A stretch of 64,000 nt of DNA from a virus. This document shows positions 36,235 through 62,961 of this stretch, piece after piece. Numbering within the stretch: the first letter of the stretch is position 1; each line of letters opens with the position of its first letter. Under the pieces are notes generated by a model. That model searched no databases. It was not told the origin of the DNA and saw only the letters and a program-made list of their open reading frames with translations. A program made the translations under genes and the position numbers. Where the stretch lies: the IMG/VR virus record IMGVR_UViG_3300032282_002699, positions 26,323 to 90,322 of that record; one strand, 5' to 3'.

Positions 36235-36282
36235 TATAATATGGGAGTCAGCGGGCGAAGCCCGCACCGCTCCAAAACCATG
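36235..36282 (+). promoter_or_regulatory. Promoter-hairpin leader element copy 1
   Basis: TATAAT ATGGGAGTCA GCGGGC-GAA-GCCCGC ACCGC ... ATG. Confidence 0.85.
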
Positions 36283-36582
36283 GACAACGCCAACCAGACC
36301 GTCAACCACGAGCTTATCCGCCAGGTGATCCAGGAGGCTGGGTCGAAGATGGTCTCCGTGACCTTCACCAAGGCCGATGGCAGCGAGCGTCAGCTCACCT
36401 TCAACCCCCGCCACAAGGGGCAGATCCTGGGCACTGGCAACCCCATCAAGGATCCCGAGAAGGCTCAGAATGTCTTCCGCATCATGGACATCAACCTGAA
36501 TGAGTGGAGGAGCTTTGATGCCCGCCGGGTCTACCGGGTCAAGTTCCAAGGGAAGGTGGTGGATCTGCCCACCGCCGCCTAA
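36280..36582 (+). CDS. WYL_2/Sm-like SH3 beta-barrel protein
   Basis: VSVTFTKADGSER...MD....WRSFD. Confidence 0.65.
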   Translation: MDNANQTVNHELIRQVIQEAGSKMVSVTFTKADGSERQLTFNPRHKGQILGTGNPIKDPEKAQNVFRIMDINLNEWRSFDARRVYRVKFQGKVVDLPTAA

Positions 36583-36592
36583 TCCTTTTGTC

Positions 36593-36618
36593 AAGCCCTG
36601 GCTAACGCTGGGGCTTTT
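36593..36618 (+). terminator. Rho-independent terminator
   Basis: AAGCCCTGGC-TAAC-GCTGGGGCTT followed by TT. Confidence 0.7.
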
Positions 36619-36643
36619 CCCTATTTCCCTTCTTGCTTAGAAA

Positions 36644-37015
36644 ATGGATAACCATCCGATGCAACCCTCAGAGCAACAACTCAACCAGTGGTTCCGTGAG
36701 GCCCGGAATGCCCACCCTACCTCATACCTATGTGGCAAGGATACAGCCACCATTGCCCACCATGTTGCGAAACATGCTTATGCTGCTGCCGCTGACACTC
36801 AACTTGAGGTGTGTGCAGACTTCCTTGACAACTGCCTCCTCCCCTTAACACGGGCCAACCTCATGGAGAACTGTAGGCCGAAGCCCCTTAGCAAAAAGCA
36901 GAAGGCGCTGAAGGCTCTGGACAGGCTATCAAAGAGTGACTACCCAGCAAACATGCAGGATGATGCTGATTACGAGGCCATTCGGTCAGCATTGGATGAG
37001 ATCCCTGGAGATTGA
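36644..37015 (+). CDS. hypothetical protein
   Basis: ADTQLE.C module shared with the ORF at 57641. Confidence 0.6.
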   Translation: MDNHPMQPSEQQLNQWFREARNAHPTSYLCGKDTATIAHHVAKHAYAAAADTQLEVCADFLDNCLLPLTRANLMENCRPKPLSKKQKALKALDRLSKSDYPANMQDDADYEAIRSALDEIPGD

Positions 37016-37607
37016 CCTCACCTAAGGAACTGTAAATGTCCAAGAAAGATAGGTCAGGGTCAAGGCTTTTCCAGCATCGCTACAAAGGTGATGTTGTTGA
37101 AGTTTGGTATGGCCCTCCCGACGATTTCGAAAGCGAGCTTATCACAGCTATTCACTACACCTTCATCCCTGAGCTAATTGCCACCCTTAGGGGTTGCCTT
37201 GGGGATAAGGCACGGTCTTACCCCAACGACTGAATCAAACCCCAGGAATAAGAAGGAATTTTCAATGGAAAGGGCAACTGCGATTTCAGGGTCTATTGAT
37301 GATGCAGTTAAGGGACTTGTGAGTGAGACAATGGGCCTAACCCTCAAACCCTGCCGTGGTGATCGAGAGAGGGTTATCGCCGCTGTTTTGCAATGGGTGG
37401 TTGATAACCTTAGCGCTCAGGGGGTTGAGGGAAGCATCATTTTAGAGGGGGATGTTGGGAAGGTTATTGAAAGGTTGAGGTTGTTGTCGGAGCAAAAGGA
37501 GGGCCGCCCTCTTGATAGAGTGACTGTCTGTGGAACTATGGAAATGACCTATCAACCTAGCTCCTTCAGGACAGACCAAAGTTCGGATAAACTTAAGGAG
37601 GAATGAA

Positions 37608-37973
37608 ATGAACTACTTTGCACTGATTAGGTCCCCAAGAAGTGTATCCATAACTCTGCCCGATTCAGGGTTCCACATCGAGAGTAAGGAGGGGCTTGGG
37701 GATTACTTGGTATCCTTAGTCGATGAAATGGTTGGAGAGTCAGAGTCTTCAACCTATAACGCCTCGACATTCGGGAGGTTTGACAAGGATGCTTGGGGTT
37801 CCCCCTTAGACAACATTATCGTCTGTAAAGTAGTGAGCGAGATTGACAAGGTTCCCACATCTGACTGGATTCTCCAAAGAGTCATTGGCAGGAATGAGAA
37901 GGATAGGGATGAACGGTTCCAGCTTTACCTAGAGTTGAAGAAGGAGTTTGAGGGGGTTGACAATGGGGGCTGA
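37608..37973 (+). CDS. hypothetical protein
   Basis: SD AGGAGG; C-terminal YLELKKEFE. Confidence 0.6.
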   Translation: MNYFALIRSPRSVSITLPDSGFHIESKEGLGDYLVSLVDEMVGESESSTYNASTFGRFDKDAWGSPLDNIIVCKVVSEIDKVPTSDWILQRVIGRNEKDRDERFQLYLELKKEFEGVDNGG

Positions 37974-38029
37974 CGTGCCTTAGAATATGGGGGTAAGGCG
38001 GCAGAGCCGCCACCGCTCCGATAGCAATG
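37957..38029 (+). promoter_or_regulatory. Promoter-hairpin leader element copy 2
   Basis: TTGACA-N18-TAGAAT ATGGGGGTAA GGCGGC-AGA-GCCGCC ACCGC ... ATG. Confidence 0.85.
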
Positions 38030-38314
38030 TTCCCCGAAGTTTGGCAACCGCAGGACATCACCGATGCAACCGCCCTTGGCATCATCGAAGTTCCTACGGG
38101 TGATGACAACCCGTACTTTGAGGTGCTCAGGACGGCCGACAGCCTTGTGTTTGGCGGATCCACCAACGCCACTTTCCTTCAGAGTGGCTACCTGAGGTTG
38201 GATGAGGGTGAGAGCACGGATGAGGGTCTCCAGGAGCTAGTTGAGGATCTCCGTGTTTTCTATGCGGATGGCCCCCAATACGTGTCCCGGATTGTCGTCA
38301 ATGAGCGTATGTAA
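38027..38314 (+). CDS. hypothetical protein
   Basis: Follows leader copy 2. Confidence 0.65.
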   Translation: MFPEVWQPQDITDATALGIIEVPTGDDNPYFEVLRTADSLVFGGSTNATFLQSGYLRLDEGESTDEGLQELVEDLRVFYADGPQYVSRIVVNERM

Positions 38315-38343
38315 CCCCCTTGTCTTTGCGGAGCAAAGGGTGG

Positions 38344-38395
38344 TATAATATTGGGGTAAGGGCGGCCGAGTCGTCCACCTTATGGAGGTATCATG
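38344..38395 (+). promoter_or_regulatory. Promoter-hairpin leader element copy 3
   Basis: TATAAT ATTGGGGTAA GGGCGGC-CGA-GTCGTCC (two G.U pairs) ACC ... ATG. Confidence 0.8.
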
Positions 38396-38521
38396 CCTAA
38401 CCTTGAGGATCTCTACGTCGTTCCCACCGATGAGGAACTGGCCCTGGAGCGGCAGGATGACGACCGTAGGGAGGCGTGGGACTCCATGTACCTTGCCGAT
38501 AATTACGGCTCCGGTGCCTAA
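38393..38521 (+). CDS. small acidic protein (42 aa)
   Basis: Hand-translated MPNLEDLYVVPTDEELALERQDDDRREAWDSMYLADNYGSGA; a terminator follows. Confidence 0.6.
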   Translation: MPNLEDLYVVPTDEELALERQDDDRREAWDSMYLADNYGSGA

Positions 38522-38591
38522 TAGCACCGCCCTCCGCCCTAGCAATGCTGGGGCTTTTTGTCCCACCCTGCCACTCACGGGGTAAGGGTGG

Positions 38592-38640
38592 TATAATATG
38601 GGGGTAAGGCGGCAGGAGCCGCCACCGCTTCAGTGCAATG
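38592..38640 (+). promoter_or_regulatory. Promoter-hairpin leader element copy 4
   Basis: TATAAT ATGGGGGTAA GGCGGC-AGGA-GCCGCC ACCGC ... ATG. Confidence 0.85.
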
Positions 38641-38982
38641 CCTAGCCCCTATCGCCAGCAACTTGTCTCCGAGGCCAACCCCCTTGGGATCATTGCCCCT
38701 CCCGACCTGAATGGCTCCGCCAGGATCGCCCTGACCCAGGCAATCCGCCTGATGCCCGAACCTGAGCGGCTCGGTCTTCTCCTTAGCCGCAACCTGAAGT
38801 TGGTTAGGGTTGAGAGGGAGTATGCCCGCCTCCCCCGTGATCGTTATAGCCGCTGGCTTATCTCTGCCCTTTCCCGCCAAGAGCTGGAATACTGGTATGA
38901 ACAGGATTACAACTTGTCGGCTGAGGCTCGCCGGTTGCGCAACCAAGTCTCTTGCGGTACCCTGAGGGTTGACCCTTCCTAA
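38638..38982 (+). CDS. hypothetical protein
   Basis: Follows leader copy 4. Confidence 0.6.
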   Translation: MPSPYRQQLVSEANPLGIIAPPDLNGSARIALTQAIRLMPEPERLGLLLSRNLKLVRVEREYARLPRDRYSRWLISALSRQELEYWYEQDYNLSAEARRLRNQVSCGTLRVDPS

Positions 38983-39150
38983 GGGGGTCTACCCCCATCA
39001 CCACCCTCCGAGACGGATGAAGCTCAGTAACTATTGCTTCCTTACAGCGTCTATTTTCATAGCCGTACTCATGAAAGATAGTCCGGCATTTCTAATCCTT
39101 ATGGCGTTTAGCTGGTCTGGTGTAGCCATGTTCGCAATGAGTAAAGGCGA

Positions 39151-39495
39151 ATGAGCACTCACTGCCTCATCGCCATTAGACACGCCGATGGCACAGCCCA
39201 ATCCATCTACTGCCACTGTGACGGGTATCCCTCCCACACAGGCCCAGTCCTCCTCAACCATTTCAACACCTACGCCAAGGTGGTTGACCTGATCTCGGGA
39301 GGAGACGTTTCTAGAATTTCTAGCGAGGGGGTTGCTGATCGTTCAGAACTGCCCTATGCTTCCCACGACAACCTCAACGACCTGTCCAACTACCTTGAGC
39401 CTTACAACTACCTGTTTGATGGGACCCAGTGGATCCTGTTTGACAGGGTTCACAACAATGACGCCTTGGGAGTGAGGGTCGAGCTATGCGCATGA
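39151..39495 (+). CDS. conserved phage hypothetical protein (YCHxDGYP family)
   Basis: MST...I...SIYCHCDGYP..TG..L...EPYNYLFDG..W. Confidence 0.6.
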   Translation: MSTHCLIAIRHADGTAQSIYCHCDGYPSHTGPVLLNHFNTYAKVVDLISGGDVSRISSEGVADRSELPYASHDNLNDLSNYLEPYNYLFDGTQWILFDRVHNNDALGVRVELCA

Positions 39496-40440
39496 CCAAA
39501 ACCCCGGTACTAAACCCCCTGCAACAATACAAATTTGAGGACTTTGTAAGATGCAAGGTGCAGAAGGAGTGGATCTGCGATAATTGCCTCAGGTGCGGGG
39601 ATTCTACATGCTGCTCCGGGGATCACACAATGTTTCGACTCCCCAGGGTTGACTTTTCCTTATGTTCTATCTGCCTTAAGGGCGTATCCTAACATCAACC
39701 TAACATCAAAATGGCACTTCAAGTAAGTTTTTCCGAGTTAAAAGCAATCTTCGCAGAGGCGAAAGAGATTTACCTCTCTTCCATCTCTTGGGACGCTAAG
39801 TTCGATCTAATCTTCTCCGACCGTATCCGTGGTAGGGTTGATGTTGATTGGTACGCCCATGACGCATCCTATGAGGAAGACGTCTCTGCGTTTATGAAGG
39901 CTTTTTATAGGTATATGGGGGAGGAGCATGAGTGAACCCACCCCAGTCCAGTTGCAGATCCTTAAGGAGATTCGGGAAGCCCTTGAGACATCCCATTCAG
40001 AGTCTCTCTTTGACGAGGATAGGATGAGGGAGCAAAGGGAGGTTGGGGGTAGAATGCTGTTCCAAGACCTTAAGGGTTGGGCTAGTAGTAGCCCGTCCAA
40101 CTTCCGTAGCATCGTCTGTGACGAGACTAACAACACGGAGGAAAATCTTAAGGAAGGGGTTGTAAACATCCACGTTTTCAATCACCCACCCCTGGAAAGA
40201 ATCACTGTTGACATCAAGAGGGGTAGGAAAGATGGTTGAAACCGACACGGTTTGGCCACTTCACGAAGGGAGCAAGGTGACCCTGTTCAGTGATGGCCAG
40301 GGACACAGTAACCTGGAATCAGAACCAGGGTACATCAAGGAGTTGTTTTCCTACTTTGGCCTAGGGCTTGCTATCGTGTACTTCCCCCGGTCAAACATGC
40401 AAGTGGAATGCCCCGTCAAAGAACTGAAACCCCTTGAAAA

Positions 40441-41061
40441 ATGAGCTTTGAACTAGACTATCTCCCTCCAAAATGCGGGAGGTACGAGTGGTATCACAAA
40501 ACTATGAACTATAGTTGTTGGAGCCTGGGGATCTCTGAAAAACTCCGGGAGTTAAGAGTTCCCGCAGTTAAGAGCATTTGGCCCATGAACATTACTTGCA
40601 AGGTTGACTTTTTAGACAGCAGGTACTGGTGGCTTGTTAGTGCTACTGACTGGGAGTTCGGGAGGTCAGAAACCAGTGGGTGGGCCGATACCGCAGAGGA
40701 GGCAATTTGCAAGGCTGAGGAGATAGGGGAAAGATACTGGGATCAATTGGTTAAGGATTGGATGAGGGAGGCATTGCAAAATGGGTGGAGGCCACCTTCA
40801 ACGCCCTCGATAGCCTACGGAAGTTCTCCAAAGGCTTTTTCTCTGAATACGCAGCATGAACCCGCCAGCCTGATGGATCAACAACTCAGTGTGGAGTGTT
40901 GGTGTCAAGAGTGCTGTAAAGAGCAAACAGGTTCGTACCACATGTTCCGCATGGTGTTGTGTCCCGAGTGTGGCAACAAGAGGTGTCCTAAAGCATCGAA
41001 CCACGAACTTGCCTGCACAGGGAGCAATGAGCCCGGTCAGGGGGGAAGTGTGTACAGTTGA
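40441..41061 (+). CDS. hypothetical protein with C-terminal Cys-rich module
   Basis: CWCQEC...MVLCPECGNKRCPKASNHELACTGSNEPGQ. Confidence 0.6.
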   Translation: MSFELDYLPPKCGRYEWYHKTMNYSCWSLGISEKLRELRVPAVKSIWPMNITCKVDFLDSRYWWLVSATDWEFGRSETSGWADTAEEAICKAEEIGERYWDQLVKDWMREALQNGWRPPSTPSIAYGSSPKAFSLNTQHEPASLMDQQLSVECWCQECCKEQTGSYHMFRMVLCPECGNKRCPKASNHELACTGSNEPGQGGSVYS

Positions 41062-41080
41062 GGGAATAGGGGCCACCCAC

Positions 41081-41242
41081 AAATCCGCTTGCTGACCCCC
41101 CTATAACCATGAACAAGGCTGGTATCAGGGGCAGTCCTCGACGGGACCTTGACTCAAAGAAGAGGCTTAGCCCCGTATCCGGATACTGGGGCAACCCACC
41201 GCATGACCCGAGCAGTGGTAAGCATTCTTAAGGAGCGGATTT
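41081..41242. ncRNA. candidate structured non-coding RNA
   Basis: Closing 9-bp stem AAATCCGCT/AGCGGATTT encloses 4-5 hairpins in an intergenic gap. Confidence 0.4.
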
Positions 41243-41287
41243 ATCTAATAGATCGGGTGTAAAACCCCGCCCTTTAGGGCGGCTTTT
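41241..41287 (+). mobile_element. Orphan IS200/IS605-family end
   Basis: TTAT-CTAATAGATCGGGTGTAAAACCCCGCCCTTTAGGGCGGCTTTT matches the typical cyanobacterial IS605 subterminal hairpin; no tnpA/tnpB adjacent. Confidence 0.6.
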
Positions 41288-41391
41288 GTGGGCAACAACA
41301 GGCTTGGGTAAAAGGAGGGCCATGAGCAAACGCTGAATCAGCAAGCGCTGACAGTTCTGGCCTGAGCCACACTGTGCCCCCAGGGGGGTGC

Positions 41392-41439
41392 TATAATATG
41401 TAGGTAAGCGGCTGAGGCCGCACCGCCTTGAGACCAATG
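41392..41439 (+). promoter_or_regulatory. Promoter-hairpin leader element copy 5
   Basis: TATAAT ATGTAGGTAA GCGGC-TGAG-GCCGC ACCGC ... ATG 41437. Confidence 0.85.
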
Positions 41440-41697
41440 ACCGCTCTGTATTCCCTGGCAGGTAGCAGCGTCACTGCCCAACTGGCAATCCGTGAGGATG
41501 GACAGGCGTTCAAGCGCCGCAAGATCCAGGATGCTCGGTACGGGTGGCGCTGGAGCCGGTGGGAGAAGACCGATGAGGAGCCGGTGTTCCACATGGGGGA
41601 CGGGGATCCCGCTTCCTATGACGATGGCAGCAACGGCCATGGTTGGATTCCGGCCAATACCGCCTATACTGGGAAGGTGCGGTTGCCCAAAGGGTGA
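41437..41697 (+). CDS. hypothetical protein
   Basis: Follows leader copy 5; YGWRWSRW...VRLPK. Confidence 0.6.
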   Translation: MTALYSLAGSSVTAQLAIREDGQAFKRRKIQDARYGWRWSRWEKTDEEPVFHMGDGDPASYDDGSNGHGWIPANTAYTGKVRLPKG

Positions 41698-42468
41698 CCC
41701 CCCCTTTTTTTTATAGCCCCCAGGGAAATGGAGTTCAACTCAATTAGCGATGTCAAGGACTTCTACCAGAAGGTTGGTAGACTGGCATCGAGCTGCTCGG
41801 TTTACTACATTAGTGTGAGTAAATCAAGGTCGGACAACAAAGTGTTCCAGACCTTTCACCTGAAGGAGAGGCCGATCAACAGTTCTGATCGAGTGGTACT
41901 GAGCGCATCCTCGCTTGAGGAGATTTACGGTAAGTTGGAGGCTATGTTAAAGGCCACGAAGGTTGCTATGGCAGCCGACCTTCTGGAGTCCTCCGATAAG
42001 TTTATGGAGACAGAGTATTTCCCCAAGTTTCCTCCCACCACTGAATCAGAACCCCTCACCGATAGGCAATGATTTCTTACTCTATTAAAGAGGATGAAAC
42101 GGGGGTTGCCATAGCGGTCAAACCTTTGCTTCTTGGTTCTAGCCTGGAGGGGGACAAACTTAAGTCCCGATCCTTGTCAGAGCTTACGGAGAAGCTTCAA
42201 CTTATTGATGTGACAATCGAAAGGTTGCAGCAGTACATGGTCATGGACGGGGGTGTCGATGAAGTTACTCTGCACTCAGGGGGTCTGAGTTGTCAAGCTC
42301 AGGCAGTTAAGGTAGGGGAGTTGGGTTACATAGCTGTTAGAGATTGGAATCAATCCTTAAACAGACCTGAGGAACTGTCTTTCGTCTTCCTATCCCCACA
42401 AGAAGCCCAGATACACACCCATCGTATGCTATCCTTAATCCAAGATCGCTCCAATACCATCAACTGAG

Positions 42469-43584
42469 ATGACACCCATTACCCGCAAAGAGATTGAGGA
42501 CGGGATGATCCTGTTCTGTAAGTCCGGCTCCCATGCCTATGGTCTCAACACTGAGACATCGGATCTGGACTACAAAGGGATCTGCATTGCTCCCCGCAGG
42601 TTCTACCTGTCAATGGAGGAGTTTGAGCAGAAGGATAAGGGCTGGGGGGAAGAAACGTCCCCGGACACGAGGTTTTCGGAGCTGGACGGGTCTGACTCCA
42701 CTGTCTACGACGTTCGCAGGTACCTGAGGTTGTTGCAATCCCAGAATCCAAACATTTTGGAAATGCTATGGCAAGAGCCTGAGGATTACATCTTCATCAC
42801 ACCACCTGCCCAAATCCTGGTGGACAATAGGTATAAGCTGATTTCTAGGAGGATTGCCGGAACGTTCATCCAGTATGCACGGGCTCAGATTAAGAAGATG
42901 CAGACGCACAGGAAATGGTTGCTTGACCCTCCCACAAAGCGCCCTGAGTGGGAAGATTACAATGTTCCGTCCGCCAACTTGACCAATACTCAAATCGAGG
43001 CATTCATCGAATACCTTTATCTCCTGGTGAAGGATCGGGTGGAGTATTATCAGGAGGCCAAGGATTTGTATGAGATCATCCATGACAGGGTGGATTGGAA
43101 AGGTGTGCTCAAACAGAGCTTGCTCCCGGAACAATGCGTGGAAATGACGCAGCAGATCACAAGGGCTAGCGATGAGTACATGGTTCTCCTTAGAGTTAGC
43201 CAGCGATACCGTTCTGACCTGAAACGTTGGAACAACTATCAAGATTGGCTAAAGAATCGCAACCCTAAAAGGTCGGAGATTGAGGGGCAATGTGGCTATG
43301 ATGGCAAGAATGCTAGCCATTGCGTAAGGCTCATGGTGATGGCCATTGAGGGGATGAAGACCGGGGAGATTGTGGTCAATCGGCGTAAGGCTGGCGATCG
43401 ACAGTTACTCTTGGACATCAAACAGGGGAAGCTTCCCTATACGGAAGTGGATGAAATGGTTAACGGCTTGTTTGGGGAGTCGGAGCGGGTTCTTAAGGAG
43501 GAGTGCATCTTGCCGGATAGGGTTGACTACTCCCTGGTAAGCTCCTTGTGCGGGGAGGTTATCTGTGCCTATGGCATAGGTTGA
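42469..43584 (+). CDS. Pol-beta-superfamily nucleotidyltransferase (Nuc-transf type)
   Basis: SGSHAYGLNTETSDLDYKG, NPNILEML, GYDGKNASHCVRL, LLDIKQG. Confidence 0.85.
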   Translation: MTPITRKEIEDGMILFCKSGSHAYGLNTETSDLDYKGICIAPRRFYLSMEEFEQKDKGWGEETSPDTRFSELDGSDSTVYDVRRYLRLLQSQNPNILEMLWQEPEDYIFITPPAQILVDNRYKLISRRIAGTFIQYARAQIKKMQTHRKWLLDPPTKRPEWEDYNVPSANLTNTQIEAFIEYLYLLVKDRVEYYQEAKDLYEIIHDRVDWKGVLKQSLLPEQCVEMTQQITRASDEYMVLLRVSQRYRSDLKRWNNYQDWLKNRNPKRSEIEGQCGYDGKNASHCVRLMVMAIEGMKTGEIVVNRRKAGDRQLLLDIKQGKLPYTEVDEMVNGLFGESERVLKEECILPDRVDYSLVSSLCGEVICAYGIG

Positions 43585-43668
43585 GCGGGGATAGGTGAAG
43601 GCAACCTAAACCCTCCTTAGGTTGCCTGATGGCAACACCCCTTGGCTCCAACAGCGGGGCCAGGGGGC

Positions 43669-43740
43669 TTGCGCTTGAGCCGGTGGTGGAGTATAATATA
43701 GGGGTAAGGCGGCAGGGGCCGCCACCGCATTACCGAAATG
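43669..43740 (+). promoter_or_regulatory. Promoter-hairpin leader element copy 6
   Basis: TTGCGC-N17-TATAAT ATAGGGGTAA GGCGGC-AGGG-GCCGCC ACCGC ... ATG. Confidence 0.85.
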
Positions 43741-44901
43741 GACCTTGTGAAGCTGTCTGTCGATACCCACGAAACCCACGTCCAGGCCTGGCTCAACCAA
43801 CAACTTGAGGAGCTGTTCTCCTTTGGCTCGGCTGATTACGTTCGGTTGTTCCGGTGGCAACGCCCTTCCCAGGGGCAGAAGGTTCGGGAACGATGGGCGG
43901 GCTGGTATGGCCGCAACGAAATTACCCTTAACCCTGACTTTTTCACGGGCATTGATAACCCTCGCAAGCAGGCTGAGGCTATCGAAAACGTCCTCCTGCA
44001 CGAACTGTGCCATCACGTTCAACGATGCACCTATGGTGATAACGTCCCCCCGCACGGTAAGGAGTTCCGCAAACTTGCTTTCTATGTGAATGGGAAGATG
44101 GGCCGTGATGCCGTTGACATCTACCATTCCCTGGCGAAAACACCAGAGGGGGAAGAGGCTGAGCGGGCACAACGCAAAGCGCTAGCTCTGTTGGCCCGTA
44201 CCACGTCGTCTAACGAACATGAGGCGGCACTGGCTGCGGCTAAGTATGCTCAGTTCACCGCAGAGAACAACATCGTTCTGGATGCTCACGCTCAAGTCCT
44301 GGCCAACGGCTTGCCCGAGGCTGTGAAAGAGCACATCTGGACTTCCAAAGTCAAGGCTACTTGGCTGTCCACGATTCTGTCCGCCGTGTCCTATACGCAA
44401 GGGTGCGTCTATACCTACATCCGTACCCAGGATTCCTGCACGAAGTTCCACTTCTATGGGCGCCCCCTCAAAATCTCCCAGTCTTATGACCTGATTGATT
44501 ACCTTACGGAGGCTGTGGATCGGGTTGTTAATAAGGCTAAGCAAGAGGCTAAAGGGGAGTCGCCAAAAGGCAAGTCCTATTGGATGGCGTTCCGTGAAGG
44601 GGTGGCTTCCAGAGTGGCAAAATCCCTATATGACGATCACGAACGTCGTATGAAGGACGGCCTGATTGCATCGAACGGGGTTAGCCACGTTCCCGGTCTT
44701 GTGTTGAAGAGTTCCTTCGATAAGGAGCGGGAGGCTGCTAAGGAGTTCCTTGCTGAGTTGCACCCCGATCTTAGCAAGGGAACCGCCAGCAAAGGCTCCA
44801 ATTCCGCTGCTGGACGCCATGCGGGCTACTCCGCAGGGGGTTCCATCTCTACGGCTCGCCAGGCTGTTGGGTCATCCCAGCGGGCTCTCCGGGGTCGCTG
44901 A
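43738..44901 (+). CDS. SprT-like zinc metalloprotease domain fused to DUF2786-type domain
   Basis: LLHELCHH...PHGKEF; then RKALALLA..SSNEHEA..AAAK, F..GVA, AG..AG. Confidence 0.75.
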   Translation: MDLVKLSVDTHETHVQAWLNQQLEELFSFGSADYVRLFRWQRPSQGQKVRERWAGWYGRNEITLNPDFFTGIDNPRKQAEAIENVLLHELCHHVQRCTYGDNVPPHGKEFRKLAFYVNGKMGRDAVDIYHSLAKTPEGEEAERAQRKALALLARTTSSNEHEAALAAAKYAQFTAENNIVLDAHAQVLANGLPEAVKEHIWTSKVKATWLSTILSAVSYTQGCVYTYIRTQDSCTKFHFYGRPLKISQSYDLIDYLTEAVDRVVNKAKQEAKGESPKGKSYWMAFREGVASRVAKSLYDDHERRMKDGLIASNGVSHVPGLVLKSSFDKEREAAKEFLAELHPDLSKGTASKGSNSAAGRHAGYSAGGSISTARQAVGSSQRALRGR

Positions 44902-44936
44902 TTGCACCGGGGTAACCCCCTTCCAGCGGAGGGGGG

Positions 44937-45008
44937 TTGACACCCTCCCAGGATGGTGTAGAATATAGGGGTAAGGGCGGTTGACCCGCCCACCGCTTTG
45001 GAACCATG
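44937..45008 (+). promoter_or_regulatory. Promoter-hairpin leader element copy 7
   Basis: TTGACA-N16-TAGAAT ATAGGGGTAA GGGCGG-TTGAC-CCGCCC ACCGC ... ATG. Confidence 0.85.
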
Positions 45009-45377
45009 CTTGCTACCACTCAGGAGAAGGGAGCCGTCACCACGACCCTGGAGCAGACGGTCGCACGGATGAAGGCCCTGGATGCTATGCAAATGGGGAT
45101 GGTTGCCGAGCAGCTCTTTGAGACGAGCTGGTTGCTGGATCGCCGCAAGCTCTACCGGGGCATGACCAAGGATCAGGCACGGGAGGTGTTCAAGGCTGAC
45201 CTTGCCAAGGGGCTGCAGGAGCGGGCTGCTGCCCGACCTGTGGTGACCATTGAGGCGGACAACGTCGCCGGGGCTCTGCGGTCGGCAATCGGCGCCCTCA
45301 AGGTTGCGGATGAGGGAATGCCGGAGCTGCTGGATCAGGCAATCAACCTGCGGATGGGGGCGGAGGGGCTGGCCTGA
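45006..45377 (+). CDS. hypothetical protein
   Basis: Follows leader copy 7; GC-rich codons. Confidence 0.65.
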   Translation: MLATTQEKGAVTTTLEQTVARMKALDAMQMGMVAEQLFETSWLLDRRKLYRGMTKDQAREVFKADLAKGLQERAAARPVVTIEADNVAGALRSAIGALKVADEGMPELLDQAINLRMGAEGLA

Positions 45378-45416
45378 GCCCCCCCATTTTTTTATGTAGT
45401 CCCCCCTTAAACAGCG

Positions 45417-45860
45417 ATGACGCAAGTATCGAAGGCAAACATCAAAAAGGCGAAGACCCGCTATTACAGTAGCGGTTCCCTGGGAAGAGACCTATACGTC
45501 TCTGAACTGTCGTCACTACCCTTGGAGGATCTAAAGGCTCTCCATGTAGAGGTGAAGGCCAACCTCTCATTCTACAAGTCTGAACTCAACACCTTGGCTC
45601 CAGAAGAGGTTGAAAAAGTAAAGTTCCAAAGATTTATCAACACCTTTTTCATTAAGGCGATCGAAGCTGAGGTGACTCAGCGGAGAGAACGAGATAAGAA
45701 AGCTGCCCAAATGGAGAGGGTTGAACGGGAGGTTTTTATGAGAATGCTTAAGGGGAGGTTCGGATCTGATGCCATAGATGAGATCGTGAGGCTTTCTAGG
45801 GAGGTTGCTAAGGCTCAGTTCCCTGCGGAGGGGTTGACACCCCCTCAGGAGGGTGTATAA
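45417..45860 (+). CDS. hypothetical protein
   Basis: ORF track. Confidence 0.6.
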   Translation: MTQVSKANIKKAKTRYYSSGSLGRDLYVSELSSLPLEDLKALHVEVKANLSFYKSELNTLAPEEVEKVKFQRFINTFFIKAIEAEVTQRRERDKKAAQMERVEREVFMRMLKGRFGSDAIDEIVRLSREVAKAQFPAEGLTPPQEGV

Positions 45861-45903
45861 TATAGGGGTAAGCGGCTGAGGCCGCACTGCCTTTAGTCAG
45901 ATG
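45834..45903 (+). promoter_or_regulatory. Promoter-hairpin leader element copy 8
   Basis: TTGACA-N16-TATAAT ATAGGGGTAA GCGGC-TGAG-GCCGC ACTGC ... ATG. Confidence 0.85.
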
Positions 45904-46164
45904 GACATCGCTACATTCGACAACGACCGCTTCGAGACCCTGCGCCAGATGTACACGGACGCCCTGGATCGTGGGGAGAACCTCCGCTCCGTGATGACCA
46001 GGGAGGAGATCGATGAGCTGCGTCAGGGGTTCCCTATCTACAATCAGAAGCTCAGGGCTCGGGTTGAGGCGGCTAGGGAGGCTGGCCGGAAGCGGATGGA
46101 GGAGATCAAGCGGCTCATGGCTGCTCAGGCTCAGCGGGAAGAGTGGTTGTCGATGCCTGTCTGA
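45901..46164 (+). CDS. hypothetical protein
   Basis: Follows leader copy 8; terminator at ~46190-46220. Confidence 0.65.
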   Translation: MDIATFDNDRFETLRQMYTDALDRGENLRSVMTREEIDELRQGFPIYNQKLRARVEAAREAGRKRMEEIKRLMAAQAQREEWLSMPV

Positions 46165-46242
46165 GGCTGTCCTGATGCGGCAAGGGGGAGTGCCCTGGCT
46201 TTGGCCGGGGCCTTTCTTTTGCGCAAGCCAAAGGCAAAGGGA

Positions 46243-46314
46243 TTGACAGCACCTGAGCAAAGGTGTATAATATGGGTGTAAGGCGGCAGGGCCGCCACTG
46301 CTTTAGAGACAATG
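46243..46314 (+). promoter_or_regulatory. Promoter-hairpin leader element copy 9
   Basis: TTGACA-N17-TATAAT ATGGGTGTAA GGCGGC-AGG-GCCGCC ACTGC ... ATG. Confidence 0.85.
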
Positions 46315-46488
46315 GCCACCGCTGAAATCAACTACCTGACCCAAGAGATTCGCAATCTTGCCGAGTTTCCCGGTATCAATGTTCAACGGGTTCAGGCTGA
46401 ACTGGATAAAGCCGGTGGCAACATCCCTAAGCTCACTGACCTCTATAACAAGCTGATGGAGGATTGCTATGGTGGCGACGTTTATTGA
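46312..46488 (+). CDS. small hypothetical protein (58 aa)
   Basis: Hand-translated MATAEINYLTQEIRNLAEFPG...CYGGDVY. Confidence 0.6.
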   Translation: MATAEINYLTQEIRNLAEFPGINVQRVQAELDKAGGNIPKLTDLYNKLMEDCYGGDVY

Positions 46489-46519
46489 TCCCCTTATCTA
46501 TTGAGAAGGAGGCAGGGGA

Positions 46520-46828
46520 ATGGGATGGCGAATCGTAAAGCAGCCTAATGGCCTTCTGGCAAGGTTCTCAGATGTTGTGGACCACTTCACCCACCTGGAC
46601 TTCAGGGAGGATGAGGCTGTAGAGCTTTGCATGGGGTATGGCTGCTCTATGCACGAGGCTCAAGCCAAAGTGGATGCCGGGGTTCGGGACTTTAAGCCCT
46701 GGACGACCACTCCCGGCAACGGACTAGAGAGGTGGGATCACTGCCTAGAGGCTGTGGGGAGGGTGCATGGGCAGGATGAGGTTTCCTCATTGCTGAGGGG
46801 GTTGACGCCCCAGGAAAAAGGTGTATAA
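46520..46828 (+). CDS. hypothetical protein
   Basis: SD GGAGG; IVKQPNGLLARFS.VVD. Confidence 0.6.
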   Translation: MGWRIVKQPNGLLARFSDVVDHFTHLDFREDEAVELCMGYGCSMHEAQAKVDAGVRDFKPWTTTPGNGLERWDHCLEAVGRVHGQDEVSSLLRGLTPQEKGV

Positions 46829-46835
46829 TGTGAGC

Positions 46836-46946
46836 ATGACACCTGAAAAGAGGCCGTTCATTGAGCCATTCAGCTTCATTACTGGTTTCCTAATGGCTCT
46901 GCTCACAGTCGCAATAGTTGTCCATCGCATTGCCCCCTTGCTTTAA
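46836..46946 (+). CDS. leaderless small membrane protein (36 aa)
   Basis: TTGACG-N16-TATAAT with the ATG 6 nt downstream; one TM helix. Confidence 0.45.
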   Translation: MTPEKRPFIEPFSFITGFLMALLTVAIVVHRIAPLL

Positions 46947-47250
46947 TGGAGGTTAAAGATGTTTTCTGAACCGCAAGCCAAAACAAAAACCAGGGCCGTT
47001 TATGAGGCAATGGATCCTCTAATGGATGGCCTTACGATCATGGATGGCCGTGGTGACTTGATGTACCCCGTTGTGCTATGGGTAAAGGCTCTGAACCATA
47101 ATGGGTGGAACCGATGCAGCCCGATCGTTGAACTGAAGGTTGCTCGTCGGTGGGCTAAAGCGTGGAGTAAAACCATGACCGTGGCGATTACGCCTGCCAG
47201 CCGAATCTCCAAGACCATCCAGTTGCCCCGCTACTAGGCCCCGTTGTAGG

Positions 47251-47321
47251 TTGACGTTTACCCAGGGAAGGCAGTATAATTAGGGGGTAAGCGGCTGAGC
47301 CGCACTGCCTTAAGACCGATG
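47251..47321 (+). promoter_or_regulatory. Promoter-hairpin leader element copy 10
   Basis: TTGACG-N18-TATAAT TAGGGGGTAA GCGGC-TGA-GCCGC ACTGC ... ATG. Confidence 0.85.
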
Positions 47322-47504
47322 ACGCCCGTAGAAGAAGCTTACCTGTCCCAGCACAATGAGGTTATGGGGTTGATGAAGGCCCTCCAGGATCGCATGGTTG
47401 ACATGCCAGCCCCTGACGGTGATACCCCGATCAACTGGGGCCACGTGGGTACCGTTGCGGAGGTTCGCAACAAGCTGGAGATGGTTCTGGAGTTTCTCGG
47501 GTAG
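47319..47504 (+). CDS. hypothetical protein (INWGHVG family)
   Basis: Follows leader copy 10. Confidence 0.65.
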   Translation: MTPVEEAYLSQHNEVMGLMKALQDRMVDMPAPDGDTPINWGHVGTVAEVRNKLEMVLEFLG

Positions 47505-47545
47505 ACACGGGGGTAAATACCCTAAAGTATTAAGAACAGGTGTAA

Positions 47546-51572: not shown

Positions 51573-51986
51573 TGAGTTACAGTACCCAAGATGGGTATAA
51601 AGCGAGTTACCACCCTAACCTACAATGAAAATGGGAACCATCACTAAAAATCAACGCCAAGCCACTATCCGCCAACAGGTAAATGTTGGACCTAAGATTA
51701 GCCAAGTCTCACCCCTCTCATACTGGATCGGTCAAACCATCCTGACACCTGAAGGGGTACTAGGGGCCTTTGAGCTTTCCTATCAGCAATGCCTGGACGG
51801 CATGGGTGAGTCCCTTGAACAATGGACAGGACTAACAAGCGATCAAATCAGACTCCTCATCGATCCTGAGACAAGGTACGAAACGGCGGCGGAACTCGTT
51901 GCGGCCAAGCTGATCCATGCTCGTTGACCAGCTCTGGTTTACGAACTTGTTTTGTGGGTACCCTGCCACTGCCCCGCATACTATGC

Positions 51987-52035
51987 TATAATATAGGAGT
52001 CAGCGGGCGAGGCCCGCACCGCCTTGAGACCGATG
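51987..52035 (+). promoter_or_regulatory. Promoter-hairpin leader element copy 11
   Basis: TATAAT ATAGGAGTCA GCGGGC-GAG-GCCCGC ACCGC ... ATG 52033. Confidence 0.85.
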
Positions 52036-52284: not shown

Positions 52285-52586
52285 GGATCTACCAATGACC
52301 ATCACCACCGTAACAATCGAAAAGCTCTGCCTGCAAGAGGAGAGTTACTTTGAGGGGCAAAGGCAAGGGCGGTTGGCCTTGATTGAGGCCGCCATGGATA
52401 GCAGGAATTACGACTTTCTGGACAAGGAGTTTGCCTTTATTGGGGCCGAACCAATCCCCACCAACGATCGCCCCCAACTCTGGTGTGAAACCTGCAAGTT
52501 TCACCAGCTACGCCTTTCCGGCTTCAACCTGGAGGAGGCCCTGGAGCGGATGGTTGGTGTGGCCCACGCTTAATGCTGGGCTGTGC

Positions 52587-52637
52587 TATAATATGTAGGT
52601 CAGCGGGCGATGTCCGCATTATCCCCCCGGAAAAATG
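52587..52637 (+). promoter_or_regulatory. Promoter-hairpin leader element copy 12
   Basis: TATAAT ATGTAGGTCA GCGGGC-GAT-GTCCGC ... ATG. Confidence 0.8.
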
Positions 52638-56336: not shown

Positions 56337-56791
56337 CTACTCCATTAGGCTTGATTGAAAGACTGACCAAGGCTTTGAGGATTCAGGTTGATGACCATGG
56401 CATCGAAACCTCACTCCTGAGGGAAGCAATTTCCTTCATTGCCTTATGCCATAGCTCGGAGGAATACCCCACAGATGGGGAGTTATTCGATCTGGCGAGA
56501 CGTCATGCTGGGGAACACGGGTGGCTTTGCAAATCGGATGCTGTAGATTTTGCCCGCAATGTTCTCCAAAACTGGGGATACATTCAAGTTGATCCCATTC
56601 CCCTAGAGGAATGTCAACCTACGGAGGACGATTGTGACGATGGGGGAATGTGTTGGTTCTACCAGGTTGGCTTGAGCGGTGTTGGGGATTGGGTTAAGCA
56701 GAGGCTGGCGACCCCCTTAAGCTACAAGACCTATAACTTCACCCACTGGTTGCCCTACTGGGCTCTCCCTACCCCTATAATGGAAACATGA
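56333..56791 (+). CDS. hypothetical protein (PT..DCD..G.CW...HWLP family)
   Basis: C-terminus paralogous with the ORFs at 57259, 58526 and 59334. Confidence 0.65.
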   Translation: MTTPLGLIERLTKALRIQVDDHGIETSLLREAISFIALCHSSEEYPTDGELFDLARRHAGEHGWLCKSDAVDFARNVLQNWGYIQVDPIPLEECQPTEDDCDDGGMCWFYQVGLSGVGDWVKQRLATPLSYKTYNFTHWLPYWALPTPIMET

Positions 56792-57257: not shown

Positions 57258-57258
57258 C

Positions 57259-59815: not shown

Positions 59816-59888
59816 TTGGCAGTTCCCCGCCGGGTGTGCTATAATATGGGGGTAAGCGGGTGAGGCCCGCACCGCTCTTAGAACGATG
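59816..59888 (+). promoter_or_regulatory. Promoter-hairpin leader element copy 13
   Basis: TTGGCA-N18-TATAAT ATGGGGGTAA GCGGGT-GAG-GCCCGC ACCGC ... ATG. Confidence 0.85.
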
Positions 59889-60092
59889 CTCCACCCCATC
59901 TACAACCCCCTCCGCACCTTCACCGTTACGACCGCTGACGGCAACGGCCTGGACGGTGAGGAGTACATTCAGCTCAACGACGCTCGGGAGGTCGCCCAAG
60001 GGTTCGCTGATGAACTAAATGAGGCCGTGAATGTGGTTGAGGAGCACGGCCCCTTCGATACCGAAGTGGTTGAAACTGTTTACCCTAAGTGA
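59886..60092 (+). CDS. small acidic protein
   Basis: Follows leader copy 13. Confidence 0.6.
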   Translation: MLHPIYNPLRTFTVTTADGNGLDGEEYIQLNDAREVAQGFADELNEAVNVVEEHGPFDTEVVETVYPK

Positions 60093-61012: not shown

Positions 61013-61243
61013 ATGAAATCGAGCGAGTTTTGTTACTGGTTGCAGGGGTATTTTGAGCTTAGTCCGGAAGGGCAAGGACTATCCCCGGAACAGACAGACA
61101 TTGTGAAGAGACACCTGGCACTGGTGTTCGCCCATGAGATTGACCCGTCCTATGGGCCTAATCAGGAGAAGCTGCAGAACATTCACGATGGGAAGCCTCC
61201 GGTCAAGCCGTCCTCAGGGTCGGGAACCCTGTACCGGTGCTGA
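61013..61243 (+). CDS. conserved phage hypothetical protein (FCYWLQGYFE family)
   Basis: FCYWLQGYFEL...IVKRHLALVF.HEIDP. Confidence 0.65.
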   Translation: MKSSEFCYWLQGYFELSPEGQGLSPEQTDIVKRHLALVFAHEIDPSYGPNQEKLQNIHDGKPPVKPSSGSGTLYRC

Positions 61244-61245
61244 CG

Positions 61246-61324
61246 GGGCTTTCAGTGAAAGGGGCTTTTTCAACATTTGCTGAAATTTCACTCTCAGTGA
61301 AAAAGCCCAAAGGCTGAAAATCCC
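61246..61324. repeat. Nested ~80-bp imperfect palindrome
   Basis: GGGCTTTTTCA/TGAAAAAGCCC (11 bp) around the central palindrome TGAAATTTCA; outer TTTCAG/CTGAAA. Confidence 0.7.
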
Positions 61325-62143
61325 GCACCAGGGGTGCTATAATGATGGGGAGTTTACCCAGATGGAAATGGCGTACTTTAAGGAGGGGGATAGGGTTGAA
61401 GTGGTTAGAGACATCTTCAGAGCGGAAGGTGTCATAGACTTGACCAAACTCAGTAGGGTTAGGGGGAAGTATGCCTCTCAAGGGGAGGTGGGTACGGTAA
61501 AGGATCTGTTCAGGCCCGTCCCCACAGGATCAGGGGAAATAGGGAAATGGTATGCCAAGGTTGCTATGGATGGTGGCGGCATCAAGACTTTCCGCCTATC
61601 CTCCCTGAGCCGACTAACTGACCTTGGACGTTCGCCCGCAAAGCCATGAGCCGAAACATTGACCTTTCCTACTCTGAATGGGAAATCATCTCAGGTTGTC
61701 TATCTGATCGGGAATACCACCCGTTTATGATTCAGCCCACCCCTCTTAAAGAGTGGGAGGATCTTATCAAGGCCATTGGTCATTCAGGGCGCTCCGGGGA
61801 AGTCAAGTATTGCTTCAAGAGAGTCAATGTACATAACATCGTTCAGTTCATAGACAGTCCTAAGGCCATTAACACCTTGTGGAGGGAGTATTGGCGTAGG
61901 CAGGACATGCCTTATGTCATGGACGACCTGCCCACGTTCATAGGATTTGCCCTGAACCACATTGATGGCTTAAGCCTAGAAACCACCATGGGGGAATGGG
62001 CATCTATCAAAGATAGGTTGCGTGAAGCGGTGACGGAATCTGATCAGAGGTGTTGGACTGAAGGGAACTTGGCCGAGCTGTGCAGAGATGTCTGCAACCT
62101 GCCATAGGCATGGTATAATAGGGAGGTTCCCAGGATAAGAGCC

Positions 62144-62323
62144 ATGAGCGCCAATCCCTACGTTGACCACCTTGTTCAGAAAGGCTACACCGAGCGGGAG
62201 CTTCGCCAGCCTGCCCCCCAGCAGGCAGCCAAGGTTGTCCCTGAGTGGTACTTGAATCGTTACCCGGATGCCACGTGGGACAGCTACCAGGAGGGTCTGG
62301 CGGACTTCCTCAACGGGAACTGA
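62144..62323 (+). CDS. small hypothetical protein (59 aa)
   Basis: Hand-translated MSANPYVDHLVQKGY...; preceded by TATAAT at 62114. Confidence 0.55.
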   Translation: MSANPYVDHLVQKGYTERELRQPAPQQAAKVVPEWYLNRYPDATWDSYQEGLADFLNGN

Positions 62324-62456
62324 TGTCCCCTTAGCCAATGCCCCCTTGCGCCTTACCAGCGTTGGGGGCTTTCCCTTAGATGAGTATGGAAAGGATTACT
62401 CGACAAGAATGGAAACCTTGTAGTCTATCACACTCTCTAAACTTTTTTGAAAGAAT

Positions 62457-62843
62457 ATGAAAAACTTTTTTCTTTTTCTTCTAACTCTTTCATCCTTTAC
62501 TTTCCCACTTACGGCACAAGCTAAAACCTTTACTTACACAGAAATGTGTTGGTACAAGGGGGTTAAGCTAACTTGTAGTATAACCGACTCTAAGGATAGC
62601 GATGGCTTCCTCACCAGCCGAAACATCACGGGTTCGCTAGATGGTAAGGTTATAAAGGTTGACATTAGGGTGGATGATAAGGGGATGGTGATTAGGGATT
62701 CCGATTGTCAGTGTTCGTACCAGTCTTCCTATGGTATTGCTCCGGCACCGACAAGGGTAATCCAAGAGTCCGGGTTGCCCCCTGGCTACATCATTACTGC
62801 TGTAACCTGGAACCTATGGGTTCGGCAGATTACCTGGGATTGA
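62457..62843 (+). CDS. secreted/exported hypothetical protein
   Basis: Signal peptide MKNFFLFLLTLSSFTFPLTAQA. Confidence 0.6.
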   Translation: MKNFFLFLLTLSSFTFPLTAQAKTFTYTEMCWYKGVKLTCSITDSKDSDGFLTSRNITGSLDGKVIKVDIRVDDKGMVIRDSDCQCSYQSSYGIAPAPTRVIQESGLPPGYIITAVTWNLWVRQITWD

Positions 62844-62862
62844 CCCTCAACCCTGTTAAGGG

Positions 62863-62883
62863 AGGCCCGGAAGGGCCTTTTTT
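62863..62883 (+). terminator. Rho-independent terminator
   Basis: AGGCCC-GGAA-GGGCCT followed by a T-run. Confidence 0.75.
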
Positions 62884-62891
62884 CCGTAGGG

Positions 62892-62961
62892 GTGACAACC
62901 TGCGCCAAGGTGCTATAATACATGGGTAAGGCGGCGGGGCCGCCATCTCTTTAGACCAATG
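62892..62961 (+). promoter_or_regulatory. Promoter-hairpin leader element copy 14
   Basis: GTGACA-N16-TATAAT ACATGGGTAA GGCGGC-GGG-GCCGCC ATC ... ATG. Confidence 0.8.

Follow-up and report, generated by a model that had tools for sequence, protein, structure and literature searches.

Why would a phage place the same short promoter and leader ahead of many genes that have nothing else in common? The question is raised by a 64,000-nucleotide stretch of virus DNA (hereafter the window), which forms the 3' 64 kb of the 90,322-bp virus record IMGVR_UViG_3300032282_002699; window and genome coordinates are given separately, and positions are those of the window unless marked as genome. Dispersed along this DNA is an element, here called the cassette, that reads from 5' to 3' as an often TTGACA-like -35 box (16-18-nucleotide (nt) spacing), usually a TGn motif, TATAAT, 6 nt, GT(A/C)A, a stem, a loop, an ACYGC tail and an ATG. 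An earlier note made from the letters alone had listed 14 such copies and proposed that they carry a promoter and an RNA hairpin. We consider it likely that the element is a promoter plus a transcribed hairpin. Our favoured explanation, which we judge to have about an even chance of being right, is that every copy serves an accessory, presumably early, gene unit as a self-contained expression cassette whose hairpin stabilises the 5' end of the message.

The regular expression TA[TG]AAT-N5-8-GT[AC]AG returned exactly the 14 claimed positions when run on the window, all on the + strand, and none on the - strand. These sites are far above chance expectation: a fixed pattern (TATAAT-N6-GTMAG, at most one mismatch) gave 16 matches, compared with 1.13 +/- 1.10 in 100 shuffles, and two of the 16 (29694 and 47903) lacked a hairpin. 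R1, a covariance model trained on nine gap-free copies, identified 21 copies in the 90-kb genome at E<=4.5e-4, with the next match at E=0.46. All 21 of the genome's own copies lie on the + strand, each directly ahead of the start of an open reading frame (ORF). The earlier note had assigned the element to positions 36235-62961; its 14 copies are indeed there, but the element is not confined to that range, as seven further copies lie upstream of the window. The copies are as follows.

Cassette 1, 36231..36281, + strand: TGT-TATAAT (36235), GCGGGC-GAA-GCCCGC, ACCGC tail, ATG 36280; R1 68.5 bits, E 1.1e-13.
Cassette 2, 37977..38028, + strand: TTGACA-N18-TAGAAT (37981), GGCGGC-AGA-GCCGCC, ATG 38027; R1 63.8 bits; -35 box 6/6.
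Cassette 3, 38340..38394, + strand: TGG-TATAAT (38344), 7-bp hairpin with two G.U pairs, long tail with a GGAGGT Shine-Dalgarno (SD) motif, ATG 38393 (or 38382); R1 26.1 bits, E 4.5e-4.
Cassette 4, 38588..38639, + strand: TGG-TATAAT (38592), GGCGGC-AGGA-GCCGCC, ATG 38638; terminator-like hairpin and T-run ahead; R1 59.8 bits.
Cassette 5, 41388..41438, + strand: TGC-TATAAT (41392), GCGGC-TGAG-GCCGC, ATG 41437; R1 53.1 bits.
Cassette 6, 43688..43739, + strand: TATAAT (43692), GGCGGC-AGGG-GCCGCC, ATG 43738 (SprT-like by Pfam, 387 amino acids (aa)); R1 45.1 bits.
Cassette 7, 44955..45007, + strand: TTGACA-N16-TAGAAT (44959), GGGCGG-TTGAC-CCGCCC, ATG 45006; R1 39.2 bits; -35 box 6/6.
Cassette 8, 45852..45902, + strand: TTGACA-N16-TATAAT (45856), GCGGC-TGAG-GCCGC, ATG 45901 (87 aa, single gene); R1 43.1 bits; promoter 12/12.
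Cassette 9, 46262..46313, + strand: TTGACA-N17-TATAAT (46266), GGCGGC-AGG-GCCGCC, ATG 46312 (58 aa); R1 66.8 bits; promoter 12/12.
Cassette 10, 47271..47320, + strand: TTGACG-N18-TATAAT (47275), GCGGC-TGA-GCCGC, ATG 47319 (61 aa); R1 38.6 bits.
Cassette 11, 51983..52034, + strand: TGC-TATAAT (51987), GCGGGC-GAG-GCCCGC, ATG 52033; R1 65.2 bits.
Cassette 12, 52583..52636, + strand: TGC-TATAAT (52587), GCGGGC-GAT-GTCCGC (one G.U), divergent tail ATTATCCCCCCGGAAAA, ATG 52635; R1 50.9 bits.
Cassette 13, 59836..59887, + strand: TTGGCA-N18-TGC-TATAAT (59840), GCGGGT-GAG-GCCCGC (one U.G), ATG 59886; R1 70.4 bits; promoter 11/12 with TG.
Cassette 14, 62910..62960, + strand: GTGACA-N16-TGC-TATAAT (62914), GGCGGC-GGG-GCCGCC, tail ATCTC..., ATG 62959; R1 60.8 bits; promoter 11/12.
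Copies upstream of the window, genome 4159, 9890 (TACAAT), 10503, 16798, 17718, 18747 and 26066, + strand: seven further cassettes found with R1.

Run on related sequences, the covariance model found further copies in two other viral contigs (G001 and G006) and in metagenome contigs. A comparison with Rfam, which the earlier note had proposed as a check, gave no match at the gathering level in the whole window and none at E<=1 in 36000-48000. With 57 distinct copies and no Rfam match, the element is a candidate new RNA motif. A literature search returned no description of this cassette; the original papers on the cyanophages S-CBWM1 and S-TIM5, possible sources of promoter motifs, were outside its coverage.

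Is the TATAAT of the cassette a promoter? The closest relative, G001 (53 kb, polymerase 70% identical), came from a polymerase-based IMG/VR search that gave 44 loci, and R1 found 19 cassettes in it, all on one strand. The -10 box is TAGAAT or TACAAT in three of the genome's own copies and TATAAT in the others. TGn accompanies 14 of 21 own copies and 15 of 19 in G001; for a -35 box matching at least five of six positions the counts are 7 of 21 and 10 of 19, respectively, compared with a chance of about 2% per site. One or both of these features accompany 19 of the 21 own copies and all 19 in G001, supporting the earlier reading of the hexamer as a -10 box, and several cassette promoters match the consensus at 11-12 of 12 positions. 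Working sigma70-type promoters behave in this way, an extended -10 and a -35 box complementing each other. It is from promoter type that the cassette genes are presumed to be early.

The two genomes also suggest where the transcript begins. The whole stretch 3' of the -10 box is conserved in the phage's own genome. In G001 the 4-5 nt after the box are variable and conservation is back at GGGTAAGG, the predicted start zone, so that the conserved block begins about where RNA should begin. We place the predicted start of transcription 7-9 nt past the -10 box, within the G-G-T-A-A of conserved GGTAAG, and a message starting there would begin, within 0-5 nt, with the hairpin. An RNA processing site could have a similar appearance: UAUAAU beside the hairpin would be cut by RNase E (or the stem and ACC in an RNase P-like manner), so that each gene of a polycistronic early RNA would end up on its own fragment, capped by a hairpin. 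RNase E sites classically combine a GC hairpin with an adjoining AU-rich, single-stranded stretch; the cassette has both, and ACC directly follows the stem in 35 of 44 copies. However, that -35 boxes and TGn are enriched, and correctly spaced, is explained only by a promoter, and in G001 the hexamer varies as promoters do (TATAAT or TACAAT), with the next 4-5 nt free. We therefore regard processing as a highly improbable origin of the conserved hexamer.

The hairpin starts at a single fixed position, 16 nt after the start of the -10 box, and in all 21 copies has a G/C stem of 5-7 bp with the G-rich arm always 5'. Among the 57 distinct copies there are about 20 real stem variants (24 arm pairs counted, a few of them from misfolds), including GGCGGC/GCCGCC, GCGGGC/GCCCGC, GGGCGGC/GCCGCCC, GGGGGCG/CGCCCCC and GCGGGG/CCCCGC. 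In model-guided alignments, which are fitted to the model and so favour pairing, the six modelled pairs were 100% paired (119/119 cells for 21 copies, 232/232 cells for 40 copies). Both partners had changed in three of the six pairs (18 cells in the set of 21 copies, 23 in that of 40), and when the partner column was slid as a control, pairing dropped to 18-66%. Stems ahead of orthologous genes of the two phages differ yet still pair; the SprT-like gene, for example, has GGCGGC in this genome and GGGGGCG/CGCCCCC in G001. These fully paired cells and compensatory GC/CG flips support the covariation that had been claimed, and by this pattern of substitution the hairpin is under selection for pairing. 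Loops are 3-5 nt in the 14 window copies, as previously noted, and comprise 30 different sequences of 3-6 nt among the 57.

Pairing could be selected in RNA or in DNA, and whole-leader folding energies did not discriminate between the strands (-13.99 kcal/mol for sense versus -13.81 for antisense, sense being better in 23 of 44). The strand of the structure was for this reason judged by wobble counts. The G.U substitutions described for copies 3, 12 and 13 are present (two in 38344, others in 52587 and 59840). Independent folding of the 57 distinct copies with RNAfold gave 320 Watson-Crick pairs, 10 G.U and 1 A.C (binomial p about 0.006), counts in which six misfolded copies (own_62557, own_72178, own_86162, G1_3500, L128:6133 and L121) contribute the pairs of alternative helices. 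A wobble ratio of 10:1 indicates that the sense strand folds on its own and rules out a symmetric duplex operator, in agreement with the single-stranded sense structure first proposed.

The same observations bear on a broader DNA-level explanation, in which the element is a palindromic operator that shuts off early promoters, or is extruded as a hairpin for an N4-like phage polymerase. A perfect short palindrome at +5 to +20 of the promoter would suit such a role, and N4 early promoters have stems and loops of similar size (5-7 bp and mostly 3 nt in the cassette). Yet about 20 stem variants keep pairing, the wobbles lean 10:1 toward the sense strand, and a 5' arm that is always G-rich makes the site asymmetric as duplex DNA. 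N4-type virion RNA polymerases are about 3500 aa long; the largest ORF is 1375 aa in the window and 655 aa in the rest of the genome, so a virion polymerase of N4 size is not encoded here. Nor is any protein common to all three cassette-bearing genomes (the 90 kb of this phage, 53 kb of G001 and 47 kb of G006). Taken with the wobble counts, we find a DNA-level element barely credible.

A second, outer helix had also been proposed, in which GGT pairs with ACC below the stem. Such pairing is possible in most minimum-energy folds, but it is without covariation. We do not claim this GGU/ACC helix, for which there is no compensatory change: all three AGT copies in this genome keep ACC.

What does the leader do between the hairpin and the start codon? 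In 13 window copies, 38-42 nt separate the end of the -10 box from the ATG, and in 38344 the gap is 43 nt if its SD-preceded ATG at 38393 is used, which bears out the fixed gap of 38-43 nt reported initially. The distance from the last stem base to the AUG is tighter still, at 14 nt in 21 and 15 nt in 15 of 44 copies (36/44). The remaining eight tails are longer (16-24 nt), and SD-like runs, GGAGG or GGGGG for example, occur in at least five of them. Short tails follow ACYGC-YYY-ARA-MC, are G-poor and show next to no complementarity to the anti-SD; beyond ACYGC, what the tail conserves is its base composition alone. Copy 38344 is the only one in the window with an SD, as the earlier note had observed. 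Its gene call (38382-38585) is ambiguous, as ATG 38382 gives 67 aa and GGAGGT with ATG 38393 gives 42 aa, the 42-aa version ending just before a terminator-like site at 38536-38554; in the fold of this cassette the ACCUU tail is paired with the GGAGGU SD.

The scarcity of SD motifs had suggested that the hairpin might recruit ribosomes without one. Our counts of SD motifs, synteny and sharing use crude ORF calls (longest non-overlapping + strand ORFs, first ATG as start), and on these an SD-like motif precedes 4 of 21 cassette genes and 37 of 138 (27%) non-cassette genes, against a background of 21.6%. As SD-like motifs are barely enriched anywhere in this genome, their absence is the norm, no special recruiter is required, and SD-independent recruitment is not implied. 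The spacing itself is a different matter. The 30S subunit covers about 14-15 nt of mRNA 5' of the start codon, so that the hairpin would sit at the edge of the initiating ribosome. If the hairpin and CACCGC position or recruit the 30S subunit, as standby site or platform on SD-less leaders, the ribosome would set the 14-15 nt; this would fit the spacing in 36 of 44 copies and its relaxation to 16-24 nt in the presence of an SD-like run, the G-poor tail, and a CACCGC that is conserved in sequence without a covarying partner. Set against such a translation element are the low SD frequency of non-cassette genes and the occurrence of plain promoters with short or no leaders in the same genome. We consider it unlikely.

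The explanation that we favour assigns the hairpin to the stability of the message. Host primary-sigma RNA polymerase would read TGn-TATAAT, with or without TTGACA, and begin transcription at the predicted start within GGTAAG. The message would then carry its 5-7-bp G/C hairpin within 0-5 nt of the 5' end, followed by the G-poor, SD-free spacer and an AUG 14-15 nt past the stem. Placed there, the hairpin would guard the short leader against decay that depends on the 5' end (through RNase E, RNase J or RppH) and keep the landing pad of the small subunit unstructured, whatever gene is downstream; lying just outside the ribosome footprint, it would leave no naked leader RNA. A protective effect of 5'-terminal hairpins is known from the ompA type. 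The stabiliser hairpins of the E. coli ompA 5' untranslated region and of Bacillus phage SP82 are single-gene features that, like the hairpin predicted here, place a stable stem-loop within a few nt of the 5' end, near the ribosome binding region; they differ in that one cassette element stands on 21 unrelated units and is common to several phages. RNase E is manipulated during cyanophage infection, according to two reports (PMC3113571, PMC9692554). We put forward the stabiliser or insulator mechanism tentatively, as somewhat less than an even prospect.

Several observations weigh against this mechanism. A role in translation would explain the precision of the 14-15-nt spacing no less well than one in stability. 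Transcripts starting at the first G of GGTAAG would have 4-5 unpaired nt unless the non-covarying GGU/ACC helix forms, leaving a 5' end that is perhaps accessible, and a purely structural clamp explains neither the always G-rich 5' arm nor the sequence-conserved CACCGC. Folding z-scores of single leaders are modest (-0.3 to -2.5), as expected for short GC-rich RNA, and the case for the hairpin rests on covariation, not energy. Terminator-like sites lie within units 41392 and 44959, after the first genes, and would fit read-through. Finally, about eight consensus TTGACA-N16-18-TATAAT promoters in the same genome are without the hairpin:

Hairpin-free consensus promoters: window 32305-32334 and 46802-46838; genome 6001, 8230, 10464, 14082, 14709 and 22731.

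Among promoters of this plain kind, an ATG follows TATAAT by 6 nt at 46824 and again at 56776 (the latter without a good -35 box), and these are possible leaderless starts.

A more specific role can be imagined for the same parts. Hairpin and CACCGC tail together might form a shared 5' 'badge' on cyanophage messages that is read by a specific host or phage factor, a proposal that we rate as rather improbable. If it were true, the factor would be an RNase-shielding or ribosome-loading protein, and badged mRNAs would be exempt from infection-induced decay or prioritised on SD-independent ribosomes. Found on unrelated phages of the same hosts, a badge would define a transferable post-transcriptional 'self' signal, not a passive clamp. 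The earlier note had named the WYL_2-like ORF (100 aa, ATG 36280) as a candidate binder. That candidacy is weakened by a borderline Pfam score (27.0 bits versus a 26.7-bit cut-off) and by the absence of homologues in 53 kb of G001, although G001 carries the cassette.

Returning to the preferred reading of a self-contained expression cassette, the units should have ends as well as beginnings. The cassette stem itself is unlikely to provide intrinsic termination, as no U-tract follows it; a terminator scan flagged one of the 14 window hairpins (62930). Separate terminator-like sites stand just upstream of cassettes 38592, 41392 (41267-41282) and 46266 (46192-46211), a T-run (ggccttttttcc) lies just upstream of cassette 14, and units 38344 and 45856 are single genes ending at terminators just ahead of the next cassette. 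The sites within units 41392 and 44959 (41681-41715 and 45365-45395) look alike, each with a G-run/C-run stem, CCC(C)C and 7-8 T. Behind them are further genes and no new promoter, and they may be attenuators.

Genes placed behind a terminator-like site, as in units 41392 and 44959, would also suit processive antitermination at a nut, put or boxB-boxA-like site, where the hairpin and ACCGCYTTAGA would load Nus factors or modify the polymerase. In lambda nut (boxA/boxB) and HK022 put, a promoter-proximal RNA hairpin stands beside a short conserved single-stranded motif; the cassette is alike in this respect, lying directly 3' of its promoter, and some tails resemble boxA, for example CGCTCTTA in copy 59840. 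It differs in its variable loop, in having no second put stem, and in its many copies, each tied to a start codon, with terminators after some units. The loops vary (30 in 57 copies), unlike the conserved boxB loop that an N protein reads, and the tail is conserved only compositionally after ACYGC. Three cassette-led units of a single gene, 38344 and 45856 among them, stop at terminators before the next cassette, 21 promoters in about 54 kb would hardly need long-range read-through, there is no put-like two-stem structure, and no N-like factor was identified. The variable loops and the single-gene units thus disfavour the nut/put-like reading of the earlier note, and we view antitermination as very improbable.

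How widely is the cassette distributed, and what does it travel with? By its portal and polymerase, the phage is an uncultured freshwater cyanophage distantly related to Synechococcus phage S-CBWM1, the nearest for both proteins (60% and 58% amino-acid identity, respectively); S-TIM5-type cyanophages are further off. A search for near-identical DNA to 36000-48000 among phage records gave no match, leaving no isolate record at the DNA level, and the public sequencing runs that contain the stretch are metagenomes, two of them labelled freshwater, and none of those listed is recorded as RNA. R1 found no cassette in S-CBWM1. Four relatives more distant than G001 (polymerase 64-67%) lack a convincing copy: G002 and G003 had no R1 match, and G004 and G005 had one each at E>0.3. 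A generic search for a -10 box followed by a hairpin and an ATG did not rise above background in G002 (8) and G004 (6), compared with 39 overlapping matches in this genome. G002 (L172) does contain, at positions 2 and 992, two units of TAGTCTCT, a 7-bp hairpin and an ATG, about 1 kb apart, which may be a different cassette family.

Beyond the polymerase relatives, an exact-pattern scan found four cassettes in G006, a 47-kb viral contig that shares 3 of 180 ORF products with this phage. Freshwater metagenome contigs have further copies, including five on L128, several such contigs being identical to G001. The total is 69 copies, 57 of them distinct, of which metagenome match L121 (E 0.0084, 70% GC) may be false. 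The exact-pattern scan of genome contigs gave 27 single matches, all non-cyanobacterial, and none of the 27 passed R1, leaving no copy in bacterial genome records; a second stem pattern gave 12 loci in viral contigs, none passing R1 at E<=1.

Comparison with G001 contrasts the phage core with its cassette region. From the polymerase gene to genome 54124, 15 of 17 ORFs are shared (43-89% identity) and syntenic; in the cassette region, 13 of 81 G001 accessory ORFs have a homologue in this genome. A collinear backbone of RlaP-like, SprT-like, 58-aa, 102-aa, 61-aa and 126-aa genes is shared, and between these genes the two phages differ by whole cassette-plus-ORF units. Between RlaP and SprT, for example, G001 is longer by about 2.8 kb, which includes three more cassettes with their ORFs. 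The RlaP-like nucleotidyltransferase (73%) and SprT-like protein (72%), at 42469-44901, are the best conserved accessory genes, and the G001 orthologs of the first genes of cassettes 6, 9, 10 and 12 are also headed by a cassette. The cassette is conserved beyond its genes and beyond one phage lineage.

This distribution raises the possibility that the repeat is mainly a patch of homology for recombination, with a hairpin that damps upstream transcription. Such a linker or attenuator would account for cassettes far better conserved than the genes they head (13/81 shared), for whole-unit indels between the collinear anchors (RlaP, SprT, 58-aa, 61-aa), and for cassettes in the otherwise unrelated G006. 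Loose ends, at which metagenome contigs match the cassette and then diverge on either side, are weak support; the sides of the joints measure a mere 22-35 nt, and these joints could be artefacts of the repeat. PeSLs behave likewise, according to one report (PMC2839356). Homology alone, however, needs no compensatory stems, no sense G.U bias and no fixed AUG distance, and separate canonical terminators are present where units are insulated. We regard a pure linker or attenuator as quite improbable. In the favoured explanation, the repeat of about 50 bp would still offer homology for module swaps between phages, in the manner of PeSLs, and the cassettes probably serve as crossover points.

At cassettes 38592 (38599-38624) and 46266 (46279-46307), Logan contigs of the likely source run stop or overlap. 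Cassette-to-cassette joints in reads, with sides of 22-35 nt, were set aside as probable repeat cross-matches, and the breaks in the source run as an assembly effect. Since repeats interrupt short-read assembly, contigs from phages of this clade may be broken up at their cassettes.

The closest known system is that of the PeSLs, of which, by the features compared here, the cassette is a cyanophage variant. In the reports on them, PeSLs are composite sigma70-type early promoters with G/C stem-loops, located in hyperplastic regions ahead of ORFans, known from the T4-type phages RB49/phi1, T4/PST and KVP40/nt-1, and with demonstrated terminator activity and recombination (PMC2839356, PMC4122927). 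The earlier note had contrasted the two systems by the position of the hairpin downstream of the promoter. This contrast was overstated: the position varies among five PeSL subclasses, one of which also has its stem-loop downstream of the -10 box (PMC2839356). Both systems are dispersed, strong sigma70-type promoters with a G...C-rich stem-loop running to the start codon, and both are found in variable regions, mostly ahead of ORFans, and outconserve the genes they flank.

The differences are equally clear. Whereas PeSL position is variable, the cassette hairpin has one fixed position inside the predicted transcript, at a fixed stem-to-AUG distance of 14-15 nt. The cassette has no U-tract and no sign of terminator function, and separate terminators are used. 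An SD and a start codon are described at the 3' edge of PeSLs, whereas cassettes run to the start codon but have no SD in 17 of 21 copies. The phage is not T4-like, having a Mu-type portal and a gamma-like family A polymerase. Mini-circles and recombination are features of PeSLs; for the cassette, recombination is a putative role. We also looked for a PeSL-style GGGG...CCCC inverted repeat around the -35 box; a stem of at least 5 was present in 10 of 44 copies, compared with 8.9 +/- 2.8 in shuffles, and the candidate was rejected as chance. A different comparison is offered by the SAS/ESAS of Cluster K mycobacteriophages, a 13-bp motif that overlaps the ribosome binding site and has no promoter. 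Cassette and SAS/ESAS are alike as dispersed motifs at a fixed short distance ahead of the start codons of unrelated genes, and differ in that the cassette is a promoter with a covarying hairpin.

As stated initially, the genes headed by cassettes share no protein similarity: blastp of the genome's own first genes against each other gave no match at E<=1e-3. Most are orphans, with 16 of 18 scanned lacking a Pfam match; assigned first genes are an AAA_33/zeta-like kinase, the SprT-like protein and the borderline WYL_2 ORF. The 209-aa gene of cassette 26066 (genome 26117-26746, extending into window 1-424) is 68.6% identical to an ORF on a cassette-bearing contig, L123. No cassette lies inside the genome block at 26.3-62.5 kb, which encodes a topoisomerase, the gamma-like family A DNA polymerase, the Mu-type portal and methyltransferases, and a scan of the whole window found no tRNA.

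Two further observations concern other motifs. In the replication block, 8298-8402 holds a degenerate cassette-like unit to which R1 is blind: TATTAT, a 7-bp GGGGTTG.../...CGACCCC hairpin and ACC, then 11 nt and the ATG of a 277-aa ORF at 8400. GGGTAA is strand-biased over the whole genome, with 73 occurrences on the + strand and 24 on the - strand; many are within genes, and several lie 30-45 nt ahead of starts without sigma70 boxes.

Promoter/stem-loop cassettes, so far described from T4-type phages that infect proteobacteria, are here extended to freshwater cyanophages of an unrelated lineage, and in an unusually strict form, with a covarying hairpin, predicted to be transcribed, at a fixed 14-15 nt ahead of an SD-less AUG. 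The copies in an otherwise unrelated phage suggest that regulatory cassettes, not only genes, are swapped among phages that probably share hosts. As a natural 'plug-and-play' expression unit of about 50 nt, the cassette is a candidate part for cyanobacterial engineering, and it may give a concrete way to study how the messages of cyanophages withstand host RNase E and RNase J.

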